From a virus: a DNA stretch of 40,225 bases. The stretch lies in UHGV virus genome UHGV-0210683; one strand, written 5' to 3'. The notes under the pieces are model-generated. The model was not told the origin of the DNA and did not search any database. It saw only the letters and a program-made list of their open reading frames with translations. Within the stretch, counting starts at the first letter, position 1. Every line of letters begins with the position of its first letter. Shown piece after piece: positions 1 to 40,225 of the stretch. The position numbers were made by a program, and so were the translations under genes.

Positions 1-477
1 GTGATGAAACCTATCCTTGATATGTGTTGCGGCAGCCGGATGTTTTGGTTTGACAGGCAAGATAACAGAGTTGTTTTTAGTGATATCAGGCTCGAAAAAC
101 ACATTTTGTGTGACGGAAGAAAATTAAACATAACACCGGATATTATCGCTGACTTTAAAAACCTTCCGTTCCCGGATGAAACATTCTACCAGGTGTTGTT
201 TGACCCGCCACATCTCGTCCGGGTGGGTAAAAATAGCTGGATGTTTAAAAAATACGGTGCGCTGGATAAGCATTCATGGCGCTCTGACCTGGCCGCCGGT
301 TTCAGAGAAGCATTCAGGGTGCTGCGGCCACACGGCGCATTAATGTTTAAATGGAATGAAACACAGATACCGACCAGGGAAATACTGGCTCTTACAGACG
401 AAAAACCAACAGTGGTTCAAAGAGTCGGAAAAAACGATAAAACTCACTGGATTTCATTTTATAAGGAGGGGGTATGA
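1..477 (+). CDS. Phage class I SAM-dependent methyltransferase (probable amino-DNA MTase)
   Basis: Motif I-like ILDMCCGSRMFWF and motif IV-like DPPH. ATGA overlap with the next gene. Confidence 0.75.
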   Translation: MMKPILDMCCGSRMFWFDRQDNRVVFSDIRLEKHILCDGRKLNITPDIIADFKNLPFPDETFYQVLFDPPHLVRVGKNSWMFKKYGALDKHSWRSDLAAGFREAFRVLRPHGALMFKWNETQIPTREILALTDEKPTVVQRVGKNDKTHWISFYKEGV

Positions 478-2603
478 GCCTGACTTACGGATCTGTCTGT
501 TCCGGTATTGAGGCCGCTTCGGTCGCCTGGGAGCCTATCGGAATGACACCCCTCTGGTTCAGCGAAATTGAACCGTTCCCGTCTGCCGTACTGGCTGCGC
601 ACTGGCGCCAGGTGGATAACCTGGGCGATATGACAAAAATCTCTGCAGCTGTTCGCGCCGGTGATGTGCCTGCACCGGATCTGCTGGTGGGCGGCACACC
701 GTGTCAGGCATTCAGTGTTGCCGGATTACGCGGTGGCCTGAGTGACGAACGCGGACAATTAACCCTTTCTTACGTTGAATTAGCGGACAGCATTGATGAA
801 AAAAGAGAACAAAACGGTGAGCAACCGGCAATCATTGTCTGGGAAAACGTCCCCGGTGTGCTCAGCAGCAAAGATAACGCCTTTGGTTGCTTCCTTGCAG
901 GACTTGCCGGAGAAAGTGAAGAATTCAAGCCGACAGGGAAAAAATGGACAAACGTTGGTTATGTGTCTGGACCCAAAAGAACTATCGCGTGGCGGATCCT
1001 CGATGCTCAATATTTCGGAGTCGCGCAGCGCCGCCGTCGCGTGTTCGTTGTCGCAAGTGCTCGAACAGACATCTGTCCCGCAGAAATACTTTTTGAGTAC
1101 GACAGCCTGCACGGGGATATTACGCCGGGCGGAGAAACGGGGCAGACAGTTGCCGCTCTTACTAAAAACGGCGTTGGCGCAACAGGCGCAGACGACAACC
1201 AGGCACAGGCCGGACATCTGATTGCATTCGGTGGGGGCAATACTTCCGGCGAGATCAAAGTTGCCACTACCTGCACAGCACACGGTGCCAGATTAGATTT
1301 TGATACTGACACTTTTGCAGTACACGGCACCCAAGATCCGGACGTTAATCATGAACTGGCGCACACTCTGGGACGTAACCACGGGCAGGAAAATGCCTGT
1401 ATTTCATTTGCAGAAAACAGCCAGGGGGAAATCAGGCTGCAAGGTGGTGACGGTCAGATAGTCGGGCCTTTATCTACAGGTGGCGGTAAGCCTGGTCAGG
1501 GATATCCTGCAATTGCATTCAGCTGCAAAGACTACGGCGGGGATGCTATCGAAAACCTTTCTCCGACATTACGGGCCGGTAACAGCAGCAACAGCAACCA
1601 GAATTCAGGGCAGCCGCCTGCGATTGCTTTGGCAGGAAATACTATTGGCCGCGCACCACAAAACGGTGGCAACGGAACTGGGTATGATGAATCCGGCGTT
1701 TCGTACACCCTGACAAAATCAGATATTCATGGTGTTTCGGTTCGCAATAGCGTCCGCCGCCTGACTCCCGTCGAATGTGAGCGGTTACAGGGATTCCCGG
1801 ATAACCACACCCTAATCAGCTGGCGCGGTAAAGATGCGGCTGACTGCCCGGACGGTCCGCGTTACCGCGCTATCGGTAACAGCATGGCGGTACCGGTTAT
1901 GCGCTGGATTGGTGAACGTATCCTTGCCGCGCTGCCGGTGCAGGAAACCCCGGATCTGCGCTCAGATTACGTGATTGAACTGGAAGAACTCCGTAATAAA
2001 TCTGCCCACATGCTGAAAGAGGTCGGTGACCAGTGGCGGACACCTGATGCGCTGTACTGGGGTATTAACGCGAAGTTCGGCCCGTTCACTCTCGACCTGT
2101 TTACAGATGGTCAGAACAGCAAATGCCCGAATTATTACACCGCCGAAGATAACGCACTGACTCAGGACTGGTCAGAAAAACTGAAAGAGTTGGGCGGTGC
2201 AGCATACGGCAACCCGCCATATTCCCGCAGTAGTTATCACGATAAACAGGCCGTAACCGGTGTTCGTAACATCATGGAGCACGCTCAGGCTATGCGTGAG
2301 AAAGGTGGCCGGTATGTTTTCCTGCTGAAAGCAGCAACGAGCGAAGTGTGGTGGCCGGAGTGGGCTGATCATGTTGCATTCATCCGTGGTCGTATCGGGT
2401 TCGATTTACCGGACTGGTTTGTGCCGGCGGATGAAAAACAGAAACCTTCAGGTGCTTTCTTTGCCGGTGCAGTTGTCATCTTGGATAAGGACTGGCAGGG
2501 AGACAAAATCAGTTATATCAGCCGTGACGAGCTGATCGCCATCGGTGAACTATTTATGAAGCAGGCGCATTGGCTGGTGGAGAAAACAGGGGAGGCTGCG
2601 TGA
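474..2603 (+). CDS. Fused DNA cytosine-C5 methyltransferase plus phage Dam-type N6-adenine methyltransferase
   Basis: C5 motifs SVCSGIEA, GTPCQAFS, ENVPG, QRRRRVF, RRLTPVECERLQGFP, GNSMAVPV. The C-terminal domain has DQWRTP, LDLF and NPPY, typical of phage Dam-family proteins. Confidence 0.9.
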   Translation: MSLTYGSVCSGIEAASVAWEPIGMTPLWFSEIEPFPSAVLAAHWRQVDNLGDMTKISAAVRAGDVPAPDLLVGGTPCQAFSVAGLRGGLSDERGQLTLSYVELADSIDEKREQNGEQPAIIVWENVPGVLSSKDNAFGCFLAGLAGESEEFKPTGKKWTNVGYVSGPKRTIAWRILDAQYFGVAQRRRRVFVVASARTDICPAEILFEYDSLHGDITPGGETGQTVAALTKNGVGATGADDNQAQAGHLIAFGGGNTSGEIKVATTCTAHGARLDFDTDTFAVHGTQDPDVNHELAHTLGRNHGQENACISFAENSQGEIRLQGGDGQIVGPLSTGGGKPGQGYPAIAFSCKDYGGDAIENLSPTLRAGNSSNSNQNSGQPPAIALAGNTIGRAPQNGGNGTGYDESGVSYTLTKSDIHGVSVRNSVRRLTPVECERLQGFPDNHTLISWRGKDAADCPDGPRYRAIGNSMAVPVMRWIGERILAALPVQETPDLRSDYVIELEELRNKSAHMLKEVGDQWRTPDALYWGINAKFGPFTLDLFTDGQNSKCPNYYTAEDNALTQDWSEKLKELGGAAYGNPPYSRSSYHDKQAVTGVRNIMEHAQAMREKGGRYVFLLKAATSEVWWPEWADHVAFIRGRIGFDLPDWFVPADEKQKPSGAFFAGAVVILDKDWQGDKISYISRDELIAIGELFMKQAHWLVEKTGEAA
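793..1221 (+). CDS. Possible nested alternative-frame protein inside the C5-MTase gene (start uncertain; ATGs at 961 and 1003)
   Basis: Open overlapping frame ending in SLSQVLE..VPQKYFLS.TAC.GILRRAEKRGRQLP, a pattern I recall from alternative-frame ORFs of C5-MTase genes. Confidence 0.45.
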   Translation: MMKKENKTVSNRQSLSGKTSPVCSAAKITPLVASLQDLPEKVKNSSRQGKNGQTLVMCLDPKELSRGGSSMLNISESRSAAVACSLSQVLEQTSVPQKYFLSTTACTGILRRAEKRGRQLPLLLKTALAQQAQTTTRHRPDI

Positions 2604-5314: not shown

Positions 5315-5326
5315 GAGGCAAGACCA

Positions 5327-5638
5327 ATGACCAAATCAAAGACCAAAGCAGAACAGCAATGGCTGTCGGATGTGGCCGAACTCGGCTGTATCTGCTGCCG
5401 TAACATGGGGTACGGGGCATCCCGTGCAGAACTGCATCATGTGAGAAACGGGCAGGGTATGGGACAAAGGGCGGATCATTATTCCGTACTCCCTTTATGT
5501 CCGCAGCACCACTGGGCATGTTACGAAACGGGATTCCATGCAGCCCCTGCAACATGGCAGCAGATCCACGGCAGCGAACGTGAATTACTGGAGCAGGTAA
5601 TACAGGAAGTCAGGGAGCTGCGAGCATGCCGAGTATGA
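5327..5638 (+). CDS. Ref-like (recombination enhancement) HNH/Zn-finger nuclease
   Basis: GCICC...AELHH...G.G.RA....VLPLCPQHH pattern. Confidence 0.75.
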   Translation: MTKSKTKAEQQWLSDVAELGCICCRNMGYGASRAELHHVRNGQGMGQRADHYSVLPLCPQHHWACYETGFHAAPATWQQIHGSERELLEQVIQEVRELRACRV

Positions 5639-7974: not shown

Positions 7975-8113
7975 TTGTCCGCTGCCGGTTATTCCTGACG
8001 AACTGACCTATGGCGGCGCAATCCTGTTGTTGGCTGATGCTATGAAGTCGATCGCAGACTGCAATCACGATAAGCGGGCAATACGGGAGATAGAAGCGGA
8101 GAGAGCGAAGTGA
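7820..8113 (+). CDS. o-spanin (Rz1-like lipoprotein)
   Basis: Overlaps Rz in another frame; lipobox LLGS-C; Pro-rich VPAPVVPIPP..CPLP. Start placed at ATG 7820. Confidence 0.8.
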   Translation: MSKLKPLSERSLKTVSALLLLFPLVLLGSCSNTKETFVPAPVVPIPPQLTADCPLPVIPDELTYGGAILLLADAMKSIADCNHDKRAIREIEAERAK

Positions 8114-8565
8114 CAGACGCGGCATTAGTTTTAAGGCCAGTTTCGCTGAGGGCAGCTAATGAGTACATCTCTGACAATCATCGCCACCATGGAAGATGCC
8201 AGGGGTATAAGTTCGCCATCGGCCTTTTTAATGGTACCGGCAATATGGTTGGTGTCGCAGTCGTAGGCCGACCGGTAAGCCGTATCCTTGATGACGGGGT
8301 CTCAGCTGAAGTTACCAGACTGTGCACTGACGGAAGTCGAAATGCATGCTCTAAGTTATATTCGGCGGCCTGGAGGGCAGCAAAAGCCATGGGATACCGA
8401 AGGATGTTCACATATACACTGGCGTCGGAAACCGGAGTTAGCCTGAAGGCGTCAGGATGGCGTAAAGACACCCGGGTAAATGGTCGCTCATGGGATACCC
8501 CATCACGGAGAAGGACCGATAAGCACCCAACTGAAGATAAACAAAGGTGGGTTGTCATTGCTTAA
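8110..8565 (+). CDS. XF1762-family protein (Mom/GNAT-like)
   Basis: LRPVSL..AN.YI..HRHH, EVTRLCTDG..NACS.LY, TYTL..E.G.SLKASGW motifs. Confidence 0.7.
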   Translation: MTDAALVLRPVSLRAANEYISDNHRHHGRCQGYKFAIGLFNGTGNMVGVAVVGRPVSRILDDGVSAEVTRLCTDGSRNACSKLYSAAWRAAKAMGYRRMFTYTLASETGVSLKASGWRKDTRVNGRSWDTPSRRRTDKHPTEDKQRWVVIA

Positions 8566-29177: not shown

Positions 29178-29684
29178 TCATAACATTTTGATAAAACGTG
29201 CAGGAGTTCCGGCATAGAGAGAGTTAGCTGGCACGTTGCGGTTAACAACACTATTTGCCGCAATAATACTGTTATCTCCGACGGTAACTCCGGGTAAAAT
29301 TACAGCTCCTGCACCTATCCAAACGTTTTTACCGATTTTGACTGGTTGTATTATGTTGTCTTCATGTCTTTTTTCGGGGGAAGCAAAATGATTAACTGTG
29401 CATATAGTCACATTGGGGCCAATCATTGTTTTATCGTCTATTGTGATTAATGCGTTATCTAAAAAATTACAATTTGCGTTAATGAATACGTCACCAATTA
29501 ATTTTACATTTCCGAATTCAAAATATATAGGGGATGTAATTGAAGCGTTTTTTTCTGCATGGAAGCCAGATTTTATTAATATCGAGTTTCTTTTCCTTCT
29601 GGATAATGTTGAAGTATTAAAAAATATTACCGCTTGGCGTGGCGTTATTTTGTTTTTTAATAAATAATAAAGATATTTCAACAT
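29178..29684 (-). CDS. Hexapeptide-repeat (LbH) O-acetyltransferase moron
   Basis: IGPNVTI, PVKIGKNVWIGAGAVILPGVTVGDNSIIAANSVV, AGTPARFIK; AT-rich and convergent with the tail fibre gene. Confidence 0.85.
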   Translation of the reverse strand: MLKYLYYLLKNKITPRQAVIFFNTSTLSRRKRNSILIKSGFHAEKNASITSPIYFEFGNVKLIGDVFINANCNFLDNALITIDDKTMIGPNVTICTVNHFASPEKRHEDNIIQPVKIGKNVWIGAGAVILPGVTVGDNSIIAANSVVNRNVPANSLYAGTPARFIKML

Positions 29685-29859
29685 TTATAATTTCCTGTGA
29701 CGACTTTACGTATACTTACACCTCAGTGCTATCATACGTTTTGATTTCACAATATCATATTGAATTTTAGTCTACTACATTGATTTTGTTGATATGGAAC
29801 ATAAGTTGTTATTGTGAATGTCGATGGTAACTAATTGATATTTAGATAATAAGCAATGA

Positions 29860-29915
29860 ATTTAAAATCCCTCGGCCGCAAGGCTGTGCGGGTTCAAGTC
29901 CCGCTCTGGGCACCA
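29860..29915 (+). other. attP core: 3' half of tRNA-Leu(UAA) (leuZ-like); not an intact tRNA
   Basis: ATTTAAAATCCCTCGGCCGCAAGGCTGTGCGGGTTCAAGTCCCGCTCTGGGCACCA comprises anticodon loop, variable arm, T arm and CCA. The 5' half is absent. Adjacent to the integrase. Confidence 0.9.
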
Positions 29916-31066: not shown

Positions 31067-31285
31067 TTACATAGCCCCGAAGTCAGGTTCTTCTGATACC
31101 GGTAATGTCTGCCGTTTAGCCAGCGGGCTATTAAAATGCGCCCAGGTTGTTTTTGGATATCCGTCCGGCCGCTTTATAAAAAAGATACCGGCACGCTCCA
31201 GGGCTTCGCACTGTTTTGACGGGAATTGATAGCCGGTCAGTTCTATCATTTCGTCCGGGGTAATTACGTCACTCTCGTTTTTCAT
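31067..31285 (-). CDS. Excisionase (DUF4224-type)
   Basis: IT.DE..ELTGY..PSKQC..L...GIFF..RPDG.P; directly upstream of int. Confidence 0.8.
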   Translation of the reverse strand: MKNESDVITPDEMIELTGYQFPSKQCEALERAGIFFIKRPDGYPKTTWAHFNSPLAKRQTLPVSEEPDFGAM

Positions 31286-31448
31286 TTTGGTCTTGCCTCA
31301 TCATCAATAAAATAAGAAGGTCAGCCGTATCGCATGAGCGTTTAATATCTGCCGGAGTGCATGATCTGTTTTTTACACTCGCAGCCAGGCGGCCTAATTT
31401 AATATCAAAGTCGGTCAGTAATTGTTGTCCTGGTTGCCACGGTTCCAT
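31269..31448 (-). CDS. Small hypothetical protein (59 aa), not in the ORF track
   Basis: MEPWQPGQQLLTDFDIKLGRLAASV...; GGGG RBS; overlaps the xis start. Confidence 0.55.
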   Translation of the reverse strand: MEPWQPGQQLLTDFDIKLGRLAASVKNRSCTPADIKRSCDTADLLILLMMRQDQNEKRE

Positions 31449-31518: not shown

Positions 31519-31707
31519 TCAACTTTTTGTCTGAGAAAAATCGGCCGAGATAATTTCATCAATCAGATAGCACTCTGAAAAAATACCCTTCACGGTCAGT
31601 GTTTCTTTATCCATCAGACAATTTTGCTCATCCGGATAAACGTAGCCGTAGGGCTGATATTCGCAGCTGGTGGCAGAGCAAATCAGCATGAATAATCCGT
31701 ATATCAT
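31519..31707 (-). CDS. Small Cys-containing protein (DUF1482/YebW-like)
   Basis: Hydrophobic N-terminus, C....C, VYPDEQNCL. Confidence 0.6.
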   Translation of the reverse strand: MIYGLFMLICSATSCEYQPYGYVYPDEQNCLMDKETLTVKGIFSECYLIDEIISADFSQTKS

Positions 31708-31871
31708 TTGCTTTCATCCTTCTGCTGCGGCTCGTTACGGGCCTCAATTTTCACCTGTGGAGGCAGGTCGTAATACACATCACACCGGCGGTCTGTATGG
31801 ATGTAGCCGTGACTGCCGTCAGGGAACGTGAGCTTTACCGGCCGGTCTTTGTAGTGTTGGTGTTTTAGCAT
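31704..31871 (-). CDS. 55-aa CsrA-like (carbon storage regulator fold) protein, not in the ORF track
   Basis: MLKHQHYKDRPVKLTFPDGSHGYIHTDRRCDVYYDLPPQVKIEARNE: ML start, alternating beta pattern and a D-x-P-x-x-V-x-I end resembling CsrA (NAPKEVSV). ATGA coupling to the next gene. Confidence 0.55.
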   Translation of the reverse strand: MLKHQHYKDRPVKLTFPDGSHGYIHTDRRCDVYYDLPPQVKIEARNEPQQKDESK

Positions 31872-31901
31872 TGGTCTGCCTTATCGTGACATGTCACGCT
31901 G

Positions 31902-31936: not shown

Positions 31937-32434
31937 TTACCGGACCATCAGTGAACGTTCACCAATTTCAATATGAGCACCGGGAACTTCAATACCATTT
32001 TCCAGCGCTTCTTTGATGGCTTTTTTATCCGGTGACACAATGGTTTGTACATCAACGAGTTCGTTAGGAAGCAGGGATTCATCATCAATGACAATTGACG
32101 CCCGGCCTTTCACTGCAGTGAATGTGTTTTTCACTGTTTTCAGTTTGTCCTGGCCAGATGCCAGTAAGCAGGTCAGTGCATATTTTTTCAGATCCTTGGC
32201 CTGACGCTTAAATGACTTTTCACGATCCGCCAGGCGTTTGGCTTCTTCACCCAGAGTATTTGCCTGCCCTTCAAGGTTACGGACGTGGATCATAATCGCG
32301 TCCAGTTTATCGCCGAGTGCGCCCTCGATACCTTCCAGGGTGTCGGCTATTTCTTCCGGGGTGAATTCACCGGTCTCTACCAGTCGTTGCAGCTTTTCAT
32401 AGTCTGCGGCTAATGCAATTGCGGTTGTGCTCAT
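31937..32434 (-). CDS. Siphovirus Gp157-family protein
   Basis: DTLE.IEG...DK, E.KRL..R, PDKKAIKEAL..G.EVPGA motifs. Confidence 0.85.
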   Translation of the reverse strand: MSTTAIALAADYEKLQRLVETGEFTPEEIADTLEGIEGALGDKLDAIMIHVRNLEGQANTLGEEAKRLADREKSFKRQAKDLKKYALTCLLASGQDKLKTVKNTFTAVKGRASIVIDDESLLPNELVDVQTIVSPDKKAIKEALENGIEVPGAHIEIGERSLMVR

Positions 32435-34428
32435 TGGTCTGCCTCTTGTTTTTCAGTCAGTGCGGTTAAACATTCATCTTCAATAGCTTTCAGGCGGCGC
32501 AGGCGGCCTTCGAGGTATTTCTGATATTCTTTATCGCCACGGGATTTTGCATTATTAACATGTACGGAAATCTCCCGTGACAAGGTGGATGCAATACCAC
32601 GCAGCTCATTGGTCGTGACTGCCGTCCGCATGGTTTCCGTGTTGCGTTTGAATTTATCGTCCAGTTCCTCGCGGAGACGGACGATATCATCGGCGTTATC
32701 GCTGGCCGCCTTAATTTCAAACTCCATTTTATTTTTGATGAGATATTCAGGGTTATCGTGCATACCCATGAACACATCAGAAGAGAACCCGAGCATTGAC
32801 AGTGCTTTTTTAATCGCGTCTGTCAGTGATTTTTTTATGACCTCACTATCAACTTTTATGCCGTATTGGGTCTGATAGCGGTATGGTGTCGCGCCGTAGC
32901 TTTCAAAATAACAGCACTTGCCATCTTTACTGCGGTACCAAAACTGGATTTTTATTGAATGATTTTGCTCGCAGAACAGAGAACCGTCTGCGTCACGCAG
33001 GTAACGCAGAGCAACCTGTTTGTTGTTTTCCAGAACAGGTTCAGTCAGCGGTTTGCCGTCTAGGAATTTTTCTTCAACCACCTCATAGCCCCAACCTTCA
33101 CCGATCGGTCCGAAAATTTCGGTAGCACGCATAAACATGTAGTTACTGTTAATGCTGGTACCCTGAAATCCCGCGCCCTCTAAAGGCTTGGTAAAGCGTG
33201 GATCTGTGCGCTGTACCTGCTTCCAGATACTCAGATTGTCCGTGTCTGCCAGAACCTCGGCAATCACTTCGGCGCGGCTGCGGAAGTCATCAGTAGCTGG
33301 TTCCTCGGCATGAGCCGGTTCCGGTGTTTGGGCTATGGTAGTCGGTTCATCGTTGGCCGCTACTTCCGGAGCTGGTTTCTCTGCCGGTTTATCTGCTTTT
33401 TTAGTACGTGTGCGCTTGGTCTTTTCCTGCTTTGCTGCTACGGGTGGTTTATCTTCCGTAATATCCGGACCGGACCGGCCTGTTTCCTGGTCATGACTGC
33501 TTTCTGCCGGCGTTATGCCGATACGGTCAGCCACAAACTGTTTACGGGCTGCCGCATCGCTTATCAGGTCAGGTAATTCTTTTCCTTCACGTACGACAGC
33601 AAAGACTGTTTCACGCGGGATCTGCAATGCGGTCGGGATAATACGGAACTCAGTAGACCAGCGCCGCCAGCTTTCATCTTCATCACTGATCAGCTTTTTT
33701 GCAGCGGTAAGTTTGCTTGGCTGAATTTCCCATGGGTCAAAATTACCGGGAAGAAGGGCGAGGGCTATTTCCTGATCCAGTGTCGCGTAATTATGTTCAA
33801 AATTACGTTGCTTTTGCTCCGGGACAGGGAGTTGCCCGGTGGCCGGTTCTGCAGGGAACAGGTATTCTTCTGCCAGCTTCTGTGCTTCTGCTTCGGTAAT
33901 ACCATCCTGAGCTTTTTCCAGAACAGTATTTACCAGCGCTTCTAAATCCTGTTCATTCAGCAGGGAAACCGTGCGTGTGGCCGCGATACCTTTTGCAATA
34001 TTCCGGATCTGCGGGTATTCATCACTTTCGTGAACAAAATCGACCGCTTTGCGGTACTCATTGCGGGTAAATTGTGTTTTTTCATACAGCATGATTGCCG
34101 CAATACGAACGACTGGCGCCGTTTTTGCAAACACTACCATTTCTTCTTCACGTTTCTGCCAGTCGGTACCGTTGAACTCGTACTCTTTGGCAAAATGTTC
34201 ATCAAAACTATCGCCGGCCGGTGCTGGTTTGCCTGCCTGAGCTTCGCAGATTATTGGTGCCGACACATCAAACTTTCCTGTATTTTCAGGATAAGTTTCC
34301 TCCAGCATCACGGTGGCCATTGCTCTGGCCATCTTCTCGGAATTGGCGGAAATCGTGATTGCAACAGTCACAGCACCGTCTTTAAGTGCCGCATCTATGG
34401 GATTAAATGCACAGATATAATTGGTCAT
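32431..34428 (-). CDS. Large recombination protein: RecE-N-terminal-like region plus C-terminal Rad52/Sak-like annealing domain
   Basis: C-terminal TDPRFTK, ATEIFGPIGEGWGY, KKSLTDAIKKALSMLGFSSDVFMG; central TLDQEIALALLPG. Confidence 0.7.
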   Translation of the reverse strand: MTNYICAFNPIDAALKDGAVTVAITISANSEKMARAMATVMLEETYPENTGKFDVSAPIICEAQAGKPAPAGDSFDEHFAKEYEFNGTDWQKREEEMVVFAKTAPVVRIAAIMLYEKTQFTRNEYRKAVDFVHESDEYPQIRNIAKGIAATRTVSLLNEQDLEALVNTVLEKAQDGITEAEAQKLAEEYLFPAEPATGQLPVPEQKQRNFEHNYATLDQEIALALLPGNFDPWEIQPSKLTAAKKLISDEDESWRRWSTEFRIIPTALQIPRETVFAVVREGKELPDLISDAAARKQFVADRIGITPAESSHDQETGRSGPDITEDKPPVAAKQEKTKRTRTKKADKPAEKPAPEVAANDEPTTIAQTPEPAHAEEPATDDFRSRAEVIAEVLADTDNLSIWKQVQRTDPRFTKPLEGAGFQGTSINSNYMFMRATEIFGPIGEGWGYEVVEEKFLDGKPLTEPVLENNKQVALRYLRDADGSLFCEQNHSIKIQFWYRSKDGKCCYFESYGATPYRYQTQYGIKVDSEVIKKSLTDAIKKALSMLGFSSDVFMGMHDNPEYLIKNKMEFEIKAASDNADDIVRLREELDDKFKRNTETMRTAVTTNELRGIASTLSREISVHVNNAKSRGDKEYQKYLEGRLRRLKAIEDECLTALTEKQEADQ

Positions 34429-34443
34429 TGGTCTTGCCTCTGG

Positions 34444-34815
34444 TCAGTAAGGTAATGCTTCGTCGTCTTTGGAGATAACTTCACCCTCCAGGCATAGCAG
34501 TGCCTGTATCTGGTCTTCCAGTAATCTGGTTTTGGCAGTTGCATCTGCAAGGATCTGATTTTGCTCTGCCCGTAAACTGTTAATTTCGGCCTGAACTAAA
34601 TCAGATTTACTGACTGAAGGGTCGGGTAATTCAAACTGGTGTTCGGCAACGGGGAAGCCCATACCGTCAGTCGCTTTGAATTTGTGGGTGAATACTGAAT
34701 ACGCGATACTTCCGTCAAACCGTTTTTGTGCATGGACGTAAAGCGTGACTTTGAGGAGGTTAGGTTGTGCTTTCATAGCAACTCCTTTAAAATGATGTTT
34801 CCAATGATTCGTCAT
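34444..34815 (-). CDS. Hypothetical protein, first pL gene (two in-frame starts: 34815 and 34776)
   Basis: ATG 34815 is preceded by GAGGCAAGACCA and ATG 34776 by AAGGAG; C-terminal coiled coil. Confidence 0.7.
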   Translation of the reverse strand: MTNHWKHHFKGVAMKAQPNLLKVTLYVHAQKRFDGSIAYSVFTHKFKATDGMGFPVAEHQFELPDPSVSKSDLVQAEINSLRAEQNQILADATAKTRLLEDQIQALLCLEGEVISKDDEALPY

Positions 34816-34886
34816 TGGTCTTGCCTCTTCTGACGGTTGGTCCCGTCAGTGGAACTCCGGATTAGCTTTGGTCGGCGACTCCGGGT

Positions 34887-34914
34887 AAAAGAGCCCACTT
34901 CGGTGGGTTTTTTT
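34887..34914. terminator. Bidirectional terminator in the pL leader (tL1-like)
   Basis: AAAAGAGCCCAC-TTCG-GTGGGTTTTTTT. Confidence 0.75.
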
Positions 34915-35054
34915 ACGTCTGAAATAAGGTGCCCGTCTTTCCGGGCTGTCAGGTCGCCTTGCCTCTTCTGCCATCTTCGTGGCGTTATTTGTTTCCTGGT
35001 GCTGCCGTAAAACTGTGAACGTTTATCCTGAATACCCGCTGTGGGGTTTTGATG
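34887..35054 (-). ncRNA. Candidate ~165-nt pL leader sRNA
   Basis: Bounded by pL and the terminator. Contains a 19-nt antisense to 4685-4703 and a boxB-like GCCCG-GAAAGA-CGGGC hairpin (34931-34946). Confidence 0.5.
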
Positions 35055-36310: not shown

Positions 36311-36763
36311 ATGATGAATAACAATAAAATAATTAAGGATGAGATTGAATTATGGGCGGCGGAAAAAGGACAGGAGCATGTCGCAATCGAAATTAGCAGG
36401 GCGCATTTTTTAATACTGTGTGGTGATCAACCGTCACGCCTGTACCCGATAGAAGACGGGGCCGGTAACGCAGACTGGAAAGCAATTAATAACAACAGGC
36501 AGCAAATTTTCCGTTGGTTGCGCGGTAATTCTCCGGCAGCAGACAGAAAATTCAGTGAGCTGATCCCGGCAATCAAAATTGCATTACCTGCTGACCGGTT
36601 GGCGCGGGTTAACGGGGATGAGTCGGTTAATTATCTGGCTTCCCTGGCAATCAAAGAATTTGCTGCAGCAATCAGCGAAACACTTTTAGGCAGTCGTGAC
36701 ATGTCACAGTGCATATCAAAAGCAGTAACCGCATTAAATGCGATGCGCATGACCAGCGCATGA
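36311..36763 (+). CDS. YdaT-family CII-like regulator
   Basis: WAAE.GQE.VA.EI, NNRQQIFRWL, L.PAI..ALP motifs; AGGAG RBS. Confidence 0.8.
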   Translation: MMNNNKIIKDEIELWAAEKGQEHVAIEISRAHFLILCGDQPSRLYPIEDGAGNADWKAINNNRQQIFRWLRGNSPAADRKFSELIPAIKIALPADRLARVNGDESVNYLASLAIKEFAAAISETLLGSRDMSQCISKAVTALNAMRMTSA

Positions 36764-36780
36764 GAAAGAGGCAAAGACCA

Positions 36781-37005
36781 ATGCTGAATACAACCGAAAA
36801 AATCACCTACCGCAACGGATTTATGCATAACGGCGACCCGACGGACATTGAAACAATACGGCCAATTTTTGAGGGACGACGTGCTGCGGCTCTCAGTGTC
36901 TGGGAACAGTACGAGCAGATGAAAGCAAAATTACTGCAGCGCAATCTGACCCCTGAACAGTATCAGAACGCATGCCGCGATATTGCCAGAGCACTGGGGG
37001 TGTGA
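36781..37005 (+). CDS. Hypothetical protein
   Basis: GAGGCAAAGACCA-ATG start; LTPEQYQ.ACR.IA.ALGV. Confidence 0.7.
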   Translation: MLNTTEKITYRNGFMHNGDPTDIETIRPIFEGRRAAALSVWEQYEQMKAKLLQRNLTPEQYQNACRDIARALGV

Positions 37006-39796: not shown

Positions 39797-39816
39797 GACC
39801 AACAGAGGCAAAGACC

Positions 39817-39993
39817 ATGATAATCAAAGACCCTGTTACGTGCGAATCTCTCGTGCGTGATAACTATCCCCGCATGCCGGATGATGGCTGTGACCATACC
39901 AACCGTCACTTAGACCGGCTGCATGCCGCGCGCCGTGCCCGGAAAAAAATCCCGTATCAGTCTGCCCCTGAACCAAAGAAACAGGGGGTGTGA
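39817..39993 (+). CDS. Small hypothetical protein (58 aa), not in the ORF track
   Basis: GAGGCAAAGACC-ATG start; MIIKDPVTCESLVRDNYPRMPDDG... Confidence 0.6.
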   Translation: MIIKDPVTCESLVRDNYPRMPDDGCDHTNRHLDRLHAARRARKKIPYQSAPEPKKQGV

Positions 39994-39995
39994 GC

Positions 39996-40225
39996 ATGTC
40001 CGGACAATCAAATTATTTACCTGCAGGTCTGCCTCACAATCGCGCACTGTGGCCTGCTGAGTATCAGGAAAAAGAGCAGCTTGATTTGGCTGCCAGCCGC
40101 CTGATTAAACAGCTCAGAATGCAGAAAATACACAGAACGACTGTACTGGTGGCTATCGAAAAAACACCGGCGGATCAGCAAATGTTTTTCCGGGAGCGCC
40201 TGAACTACTGGCAGGGGGTAATTAA
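39996..40225 (+). CDS. Hypothetical protein (77 aa if circular; stop at positions 2-4)
   Basis: Open to the window end; ...ATT AA|G TGA when joined to position 1, giving a GTGA overlap with the first gene. Confidence 0.65.
   Translation, partial: MSGQSNYLPAGLPHNRALWPAEYQEKEQLDLAASRLIKQLRMQKIHRTTVLVAIEKTPADQQMFFRERLNYWQGVI

Follow-up and report, generated by a model that had tools for sequence, protein, structure and literature searches.

INTRODUCTION

The C4 RNA of P1 and the CI RNA of P4 are structured prophage antisense RNAs whose exposed loops pair with repeated sites on lytic messages.

The Salmonella small RNA IsrB is reported to be encoded antisense just upstream of sbcA and to be detectable by northern blotting (PMC2330248), and its expression in lysogens has been described (PMC7067206). 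Among RNA-binding proteins, the CsrA fold is reported to use its backbone for reading A(N)GGAX and to be unable to accommodate other bases (PMC4005645), and L4 and R44 are described as critical in E. coli CsrA, in which the R44A change abolishes regulation (PMC7652899). CsrA genes also occur in phages: one survey reports them in 30 of 2,517 phage genomes (PMC7366521), and one phage CsrA is reported to affect plaque size, the role of phage CsrA proteins being presented in that source as nearly untested (PMC11879866).

Here we analyze a 40,225-nt stretch of phage DNA (UHGV virus genome UHGV-0210683), termed the window. A reading made earlier from its letters alone (the sequence-only reading) had singled out a 55-aa ORF as a CsrA-like protein that may recognize a GACCAA element.

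RESULTS

A selected 55-aa gene in the left early operon

The source DNA is a lambdoid phage, and the 55-aa ORF sits in its left early operon, whose order is repressor, 123-aa ORF, exonuclease, Gam-like gene, 55-aa ORF, two small ORFs, excisionase, and integrase. The ORF and the gene coupled to it are located as follows:

31704 to 31871, minus strand (31871-31704): 55-aa ORF, phrog_2482; likely a diverged CsrA-family protein
31519 to 31707, minus strand: 62-aa ORF, ATGA-coupled to the 55-aa ORF; without a PHROG match

The 55-aa protein begins with ML, AAGGCAGACCAATG is located directly 5' of its start, and its stop codon overlaps the ATG of the 62-aa ORF (ATGA). It matches the profile of phrog_2482, a family of unannotated function, with an E value of 2.9e-14 over residues 1 to 51. 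Comparison with the copy from Morganella psychrotolerans over the first 47 codons revealed 0, 2, and 15 differences at first, second, and third positions, respectively; since 13 of the 16 changed codons are synonymous and 3 are non-synonymous, we conclude that the ORF is a selected gene under purifying selection. The profile match and the synonymous bias confirm that the ORF is real, coupled through ATGA, and preceded by AAGGCAGACCAATG, as had been claimed. The DLPPQVKI motif is present too, but at residues 35 to 42, with a 13-residue tail after it, and not at the end of the protein as the sequence-only reading had it.

Relatives of the ORF were found in records of Morganella, Providencia, Proteus, Xenorhabdus, Arsenophonus, Yersinia, Pectobacterium, and Brenneria, and the family is spread over lambdoid prophages of many Enterobacterales. 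A tblastn search of phage records gave no match with the 55-aa ORF as the query; with a relative as the query, it retrieved gp05 of phage ZF40 and two more records.

Elsewhere in the window, we noted the following features:

1 to 477, plus strand: a further methyltransferase gene, ahead of the gene for the 709-aa protein
474 to 2603, plus strand: gene for a 709-aa protein with full-length matches to two distinct DNA methyltransferase families
8110 to 8565, plus strand: Mom-like DNA modification gene
29178 to 29684, minus strand: AT-rich gene for a 168-aa protein, hexapeptide-repeat acetyltransferase-like by eye
about 29855 to 29915: tRNA-like fragment beside the integrase gene, by eye, which may be the attachment core
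39990 to 40223, plus strand: DNA polymerase III theta-like gene

Likely CsrA ancestry of the 55-aa protein

At the Pfam cutoff of 27 bits, the 55-aa ORF has no match to any family, CsrA included, and the 18 members of the family alignment (A1) likewise have no match to Pfam CsrA; one other family member reaches an E value of 0.048. The link to CsrA emerged from a search of 1.84 billion proteins with the profile of the 18 aligned sequences, which gave 59 matches, 23 of them short proteins covering most of the profile. We scanned 24 proteins against Pfam (19 of the short profile matches plus five earlier family members) and found three above the CsrA cutoff (36.0, 43.8, and 49.3 bits) and three more that match CsrA at E<0.001. 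The A1 profile aligns to the three Pfam-positive proteins with E values of 2.5e-6, 4.9e-5, and 2.9e-4, from positions 1 to 46 to positions 1 to 52, so that homology to CsrA/RsmA (PF02599) is found by profile over the whole core via these bridge proteins. One bridge protein matches RsmE/CsrA structures by sequence (E of 0.002 to 0.004), and four of the six match PHROG 9500 (E of 2e-6 to 0.03), a PHROG without matches among the family members. A value of 98.8% from hhalign is circular because the bridge proteins aligned in it had been found with the family profile.

With the numbering anchored on M1 and P37, residues M1, L2, and P37 of the 55-aa protein fall at CsrA's own residue numbers, and the positions of L4 and R44 are occupied by H4 and A44. 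Across 51 family members, R is found at position 44 in 10, L at position 4 in at most one, and R29 in 49. The AlphaFold2 monomer, of moderate confidence (pLDDT 76.6, pTM 0.51), has five strands in the CsrA order (residues 2 to 7, 12 to 15, 21 to 24, 30 to 34, and 41 to 44); the C-terminal helix after beta5 is absent from it, and residues 48 to 55 have pLDDT values below 50. Fold searches with the monomer model as the sole query gave no CsrA among their matches. In the ESM Atlas, the fourth row (0.83) has CsrA on 14% of its members, which we take as a lead only. The earlier call of a CsrA-like protein, made by eye, is thus supported by the profile bridge and the order of the five strands, and not by Pfam or by the fold searches with the monomer.

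The likeness could instead be convergent, the 55-aa protein being another small all-beta protein with a profile link that runs through a common 'TxPDG' beta-hairpin. In keeping with this, the other 36 of the 59 profile matches are longer proteins aligned in part, mostly over one beta-hairpin, and the CsrA-positive bridge proteins have a PDG motif that is absent in E. coli CsrA. Furthermore, the best match of the family among solved structures by sequence is a Bap C repeat (E of 2e-12 summed over two repeats, 3e-4 each), which also came third in the Foldseek ranking for the monomer model (E of 0.98). However, the bridge proteins are of CsrA size, align from residue 1 to about residue 50, have the ML..P37 spacing in common, and score above the Pfam cutoff, and the Bap match concerns residues 6 to 53 of an internal repeat, not a free-standing 55-aa protein. 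We consider convergence unlikely and CsrA ancestry quite probable, although the family tests do not assign the 55-aa protein to PF02599.

A start-site element and its complement in a predicted IsrB-like RNA

GACCAA alone is not enriched in the window (20 seen versus 22.0 expected), and AGGCA(N)GACCAA is (6 seen versus 0.03 expected). A relaxed pattern of this element gives eight sites in the window, seven of which are at gene starts:

5315 to 5329, plus strand: HNH-like gene upstream of Q
31283 to 31299, minus strand: start of the excisionase gene
31869 to 31882, minus strand: own start of the 55-aa ORF (AAGGCAGACCAATG), with a one-base gap
32432 to 32445, minus strand: start of the Gam-like gene
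34426 to 34440, minus strand: start of the 665-aa exonuclease gene
36768 to 36783, plus strand: gene that follows cII (phrog_2465) and precedes the replication initiator
39805 to 39819, plus strand: gene after dnaB

The eighth site (34815-34826) serves as the template of a predicted antisense RNA. A separate start, AAGGAG..ATG at 34776, follows 39 nt downstream of this site, and the ORF that begins there aligns with its PHROG from residue 17 onward. The features of the RNA are as follows:

34765 to 34793, plus strand: candidate small-RNA promoter TTGTGC-17-TAAAAT, by eye, 8 of 12 consensus positions
about 34801 to 34914, plus strand: predicted IsrB-like small RNA with a putative 5' end, an anti-element segment, two UUGGUC-loop hairpins, and a terminator
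34813 to 34827, plus strand: exact complement of the element (CATTGGTCTTGCCTC) in the small RNA, directly 5' of the IsrB match

The Rfam IsrB model (RF01386) scores 31.9 bits (E of 0.00092) against 34828-34913 on the plus strand, under its cutoff of 35, and Rfam gave no match at the cutoff within the window; the class B locus L384 reaches 35.0 bits. The antisense position upstream of the exonuclease gene, the conserved loop, and the terminator of IsrB are all found here. The region folds with a z score of -4.9 and ends in a hairpin followed by seven U. A consensus promoter scan did not list the candidate promoter, and a -10-like hexamer is located upstream of the RNA in the window and at the same place in relatives.

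In 16 diverse variants of the RNA, three UUGGUC-type motifs are almost invariant and the stems change. Double changes are seen at 13 of the 23 consensus pairs on the antisense strand, versus at 8 of 12 on the message strand, which has half the energy. Folding is better on the antisense strand for every one of the 16 variants (by a mean of 15 kcal/mol), which is moderate evidence, because G/U-rich strands generally fold better. RNA-seq depth was raised over 34684-34951 in one of four runs, on contigs without strand and with a depth that cannot rank genes. When 53 starts were ranked by duplex energy with the RNA, six element genes came first and the 55-aa ORF eighth, a partly circular ranking to which we give little weight.

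The element exists in three classes (A, GAGGCAAGACCAATG; B, GAGGAAAGACCAA; C, CGAGTTTTGACCAATGACC), and in each of them the RNA contains the matching complement; a group D, which includes Gifsy-2, has the IsrB core only, without the element. The element copy under the RNA often has no ATG after it and is therefore not kept as a start site. Gifsy-2 retains IsrB and its conserved loop without the element and without the 55-aa ORF, so the loop has another role there. Class C has fewer targets, with 0 to 2 copies per locus at ORFs of at least 40 aa, and its circuit may be simpler than that of A and B.

GACCA-loop hairpins are found 10 to 30 nt upstream of many element copies, and hairpins with a GACCAA loop precede class C sites as well. 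Of 41 class B sites, 27 have an additional GACC on their upstream side (8.8 expected), as do 45 of 126 class A sites (19.5 expected), the latter count being diluted by unrelated genome matches. These upstream hairpins could make loop-loop contacts with the UUGGUC loops of the RNA. In the window, one GACCA-loop hairpin (36743-36761, plus strand) precedes the element copy of the post-cII gene. We consider the IsrB-like RNA, 3 kb away from the 55-aa ORF, a better candidate reader of the element, and a more likely one, than the 55-aa protein.

At loci L350 and L429 (near 8318, minus strand), which have Gifsy-type RNAs, a 78-aa ORF that resembles Cro by eye begins with ACCGACCAATG, which is complementary to the loop conserved in IsrB. 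This ORF is a possible IsrB target; the cro gene of Gifsy-2 is without ACCGACCAATG.

Distribution of the ORF, the element, and a leader hairpin

Among the 119 loci fetched by the RNA core alone, 68 have at least 3,500 nt on the left-operon side. The 55-aa ORF is present in 18/19 of these in class A, 7/7 in class B, 0/3 in class C, and 1/39 in group D, the loci being related and not independent samples. A separate fetch of class C yielded 79 loci, 71 of them with the RNA, and none of the 79 carries the ORF family (best score, 10.5 bits; class B members, at least 68). Thirty of them hold the whole left arm to the integrase, again without the ORF, and at 17 of these 30 (12 contigs) an element copy starts an ORF of at least 40 aa. 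Class C thus keeps the GACCAATG element and the RNA without the ORF, a situation that the sequence-only reading had itself named as speaking against its model. The 55-aa protein had been presented there as the best effector of the element; this place more probably belongs to the IsrB-like RNA.

In classes A and B, the ORF and the element are associated, as the sequence-only reading had asked to be checked, but five neighboring genes of the module (the first left gene, the exonuclease, Gam-like, 59-aa, and post-cII genes) are distributed in the same way as the ORF. Since co-occurrence does not single out the ORF, we rejected it as support for the ORF as the effector. The element is found on the ORF's own start in 50/55 and 5/6 proteins of two subfamilies and in 1/23 distinct proteins of a third, so the autoregulation through the element that had been suggested is not general.

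In one class A prophage (L365, near 14293, plus strand), the ORF is cut to 25 aa, and the element, the RNA, and the leader hairpin are retained. Another prophage, with a Gifsy-type RNA, contains a member of the ORF family (L429:13085-13297, plus strand) and has the class B element only at an excisionase-like gene, as if the distal left arm had been swapped in.

The left-operon leader contains a further candidate site:

34931 to 34946, minus strand: hairpin capped by GGAAAGAC, candidate protein-binding site; single copy in the window

In prophages of classes A and B, this hairpin has a fixed cap and a stem that covaries in pairs. Counted over distinct RNA variants with the whole left arm, the hairpin is present in 49/57 of class A, 30/33 of class B, 0/18 of class C, and 1/13 of group D, with the proviso that many A and B loci in this count had been fetched via the ORF or the element and that L568, L575, and L578 are class C in the presence counts and D here, the patterns used being different. 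It is absent from 12 of 90 ORF-bearing variants. We selected it as the best candidate site on account of its GG, the core that the CsrA fold reportedly requires. Judged by sequence, the GGAAAGAC hairpin is a candidate ligand of the 55-aa protein, another protein of the module or a host factor being possible partners.

An N-type nut pair was rejected as a reading of the GGAAAGAC hairpin, which occurs just once in the window. Several such hairpins can be present in one class B leader (L549 and L553). The left leader of these same two class B loci (L553:6254-6355, plus strand, and also L549) has a segment similar to the 3' portion of RprA, a host small RNA (43.3 bits, E of 0.054).

DISCUSSION

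We propose that the 55-aa ORF is an early gene that likely encodes a far-diverged, helix-less protein of the CsrA family, and that it is likely one of the seven targets of the antisense RNA and not the reader of the tag; we assign this reading a probability of roughly 0.55. In a lysogen, the RNA would be transcribed from its own promoter and make first contact, through its UUGGUC loops, with GACCA stretches of early messages that arise by leakage, after which its 5' segment would mask the ribosome site and start codon at seven early genes. Genes of excision and recombination, replication-linked genes, and genes near Q would be kept down in this way, as would the 55-aa ORF, the RNA acting as a second lock behind the repressor. 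After induction, the 55-aa protein might dimerize in the manner of CsrA and bind RNA from the early module to which it belongs.

A more elaborate scheme, which we find doubtful, is a two-layer translation switch in which the antisense RNA would silence the early ribosome sites and a CsrA paralogue without the standard RNA-binding residues would flip the switch after induction by binding the UUGGUC loops or the GGAAAGAC hairpin. Similarly, and with as little likelihood, the protein could act after induction on the UUGGUC loops, or on the leader hairpin together with the GG(A/C)AAGAC half of the element, thereby freeing the early messages from the RNA. That the ORF occurs alongside the GGAAAGAC hairpin and the RNA classes with an additional UUGGUC hairpin (A and B) is consistent with such a counter-switch, but the five other module genes share this distribution, and L365 keeps the element, the RNA, and the hairpin with a truncated ORF. 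The GG of UUGGUC occupies the same loop positions as in the ACGGAU loop reported bound to RsmE (PMC4005645), and the widely kept R29 corresponds, by numbering, to the stem-contacting Gln29, two points that also argue for binding of this kind.

According to the sequence-only reading, the protein would be a CsrA that reads GACCAA for GGA and represses the element genes and itself, message-strand GACCAA-loop hairpins serving as decoys. The element on the ORF's own start, here and in most proteins of two subfamilies, would agree with this, as would the ability of the message strand to fold a GACCAA-loop hairpin and the extra GACC at class B sites, which recalls two-site CsrA targets. Yet the element and the GACCAA-loop hairpins persist without the ORF, the element is nearly missing from the third subfamily, protein positions 4 to 7 and 43 to 47 vary widely while GACCA is fixed, the RNA structure is better on the antisense strand, and the CsrA fold is reported unable to take other bases; we therefore regard GACCAA recognition by the protein as very improbable. 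It is rather improbable that the target is the host Csr system, the protein being a heterodimer partner or competitor without R44 and the element merely controlling the ORF. The rarity of R44 in the family fits this proposal, given the reported effect of R44A (PMC7652899), as does an influence of Csr on prophage activation in Serratia (cited in PMC7366521). Nevertheless, the sequence is far from that of host CsrA and has no Pfam match, which makes heterodimers doubtful, and a literature search for a phage protein acting on host Csr found no such case by title.

The reading of the 55-aa ORF as a CsrA-related target of the antisense RNA would give a likely ancestry to PHROG 2482, which is unannotated in prophages of Morganella, Proteus, Providencia, Xenorhabdus, Yersinia, and Pectobacterium. 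IsrB-type RNAs would gain a testable function, for which natural matched variants of the element and the RNA exist. Should the 55-aa protein bind a non-GGA motif, the rule that the CsrA fold fixes specificity would be broken. A search of openly accessible literature records found no published description of the PHROG 2482 family, the element, or an IsrB target.

Comparison with known systems

Like CsrA, RsmA, and RsmE (PF02599; PDB 1Y00 and 2JPP), which have about 55 to 60 aa, the 55-aa protein has an ML start, P37, and five predicted strands. Unlike them, it has, by numbering, H for L4, A for R44, and R for Q29, and no predicted C-terminal helix; its family has an invariant DG turn. As with the CsrA homologues described in phages (RsmM of Pseudomonas aeruginosa phages, PTXU04 gp28, and PHROG 9500/5527; PMC7366521 and PMC11879866), we are dealing here with a CsrA-family gene in a phage, provided that the ancestry holds; those homologues were found by PSI-BLAST from E. 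coli CsrA or annotated as CsrA-like, whereas the present gene belongs to PHROG 2482. Phage CsrA genes are thus already known, and PHROG 2482 is likely a more diverged, unannotated branch of them.

The predicted RNA resembles IsrB (RF01386) of Salmonella Gifsy-1 and Gifsy-2 in lying upstream of the exonuclease gene, in antisense orientation to the left operon, and in having the GCUUUGGUCGG loop and a terminator, and it differs from IsrB in being longer, with an anti-element segment and a second UUGGUC hairpin. In contrast to P1 C4 and P4 CI, its proposed targets are seven gene ribosome sites distributed over the two early operons.
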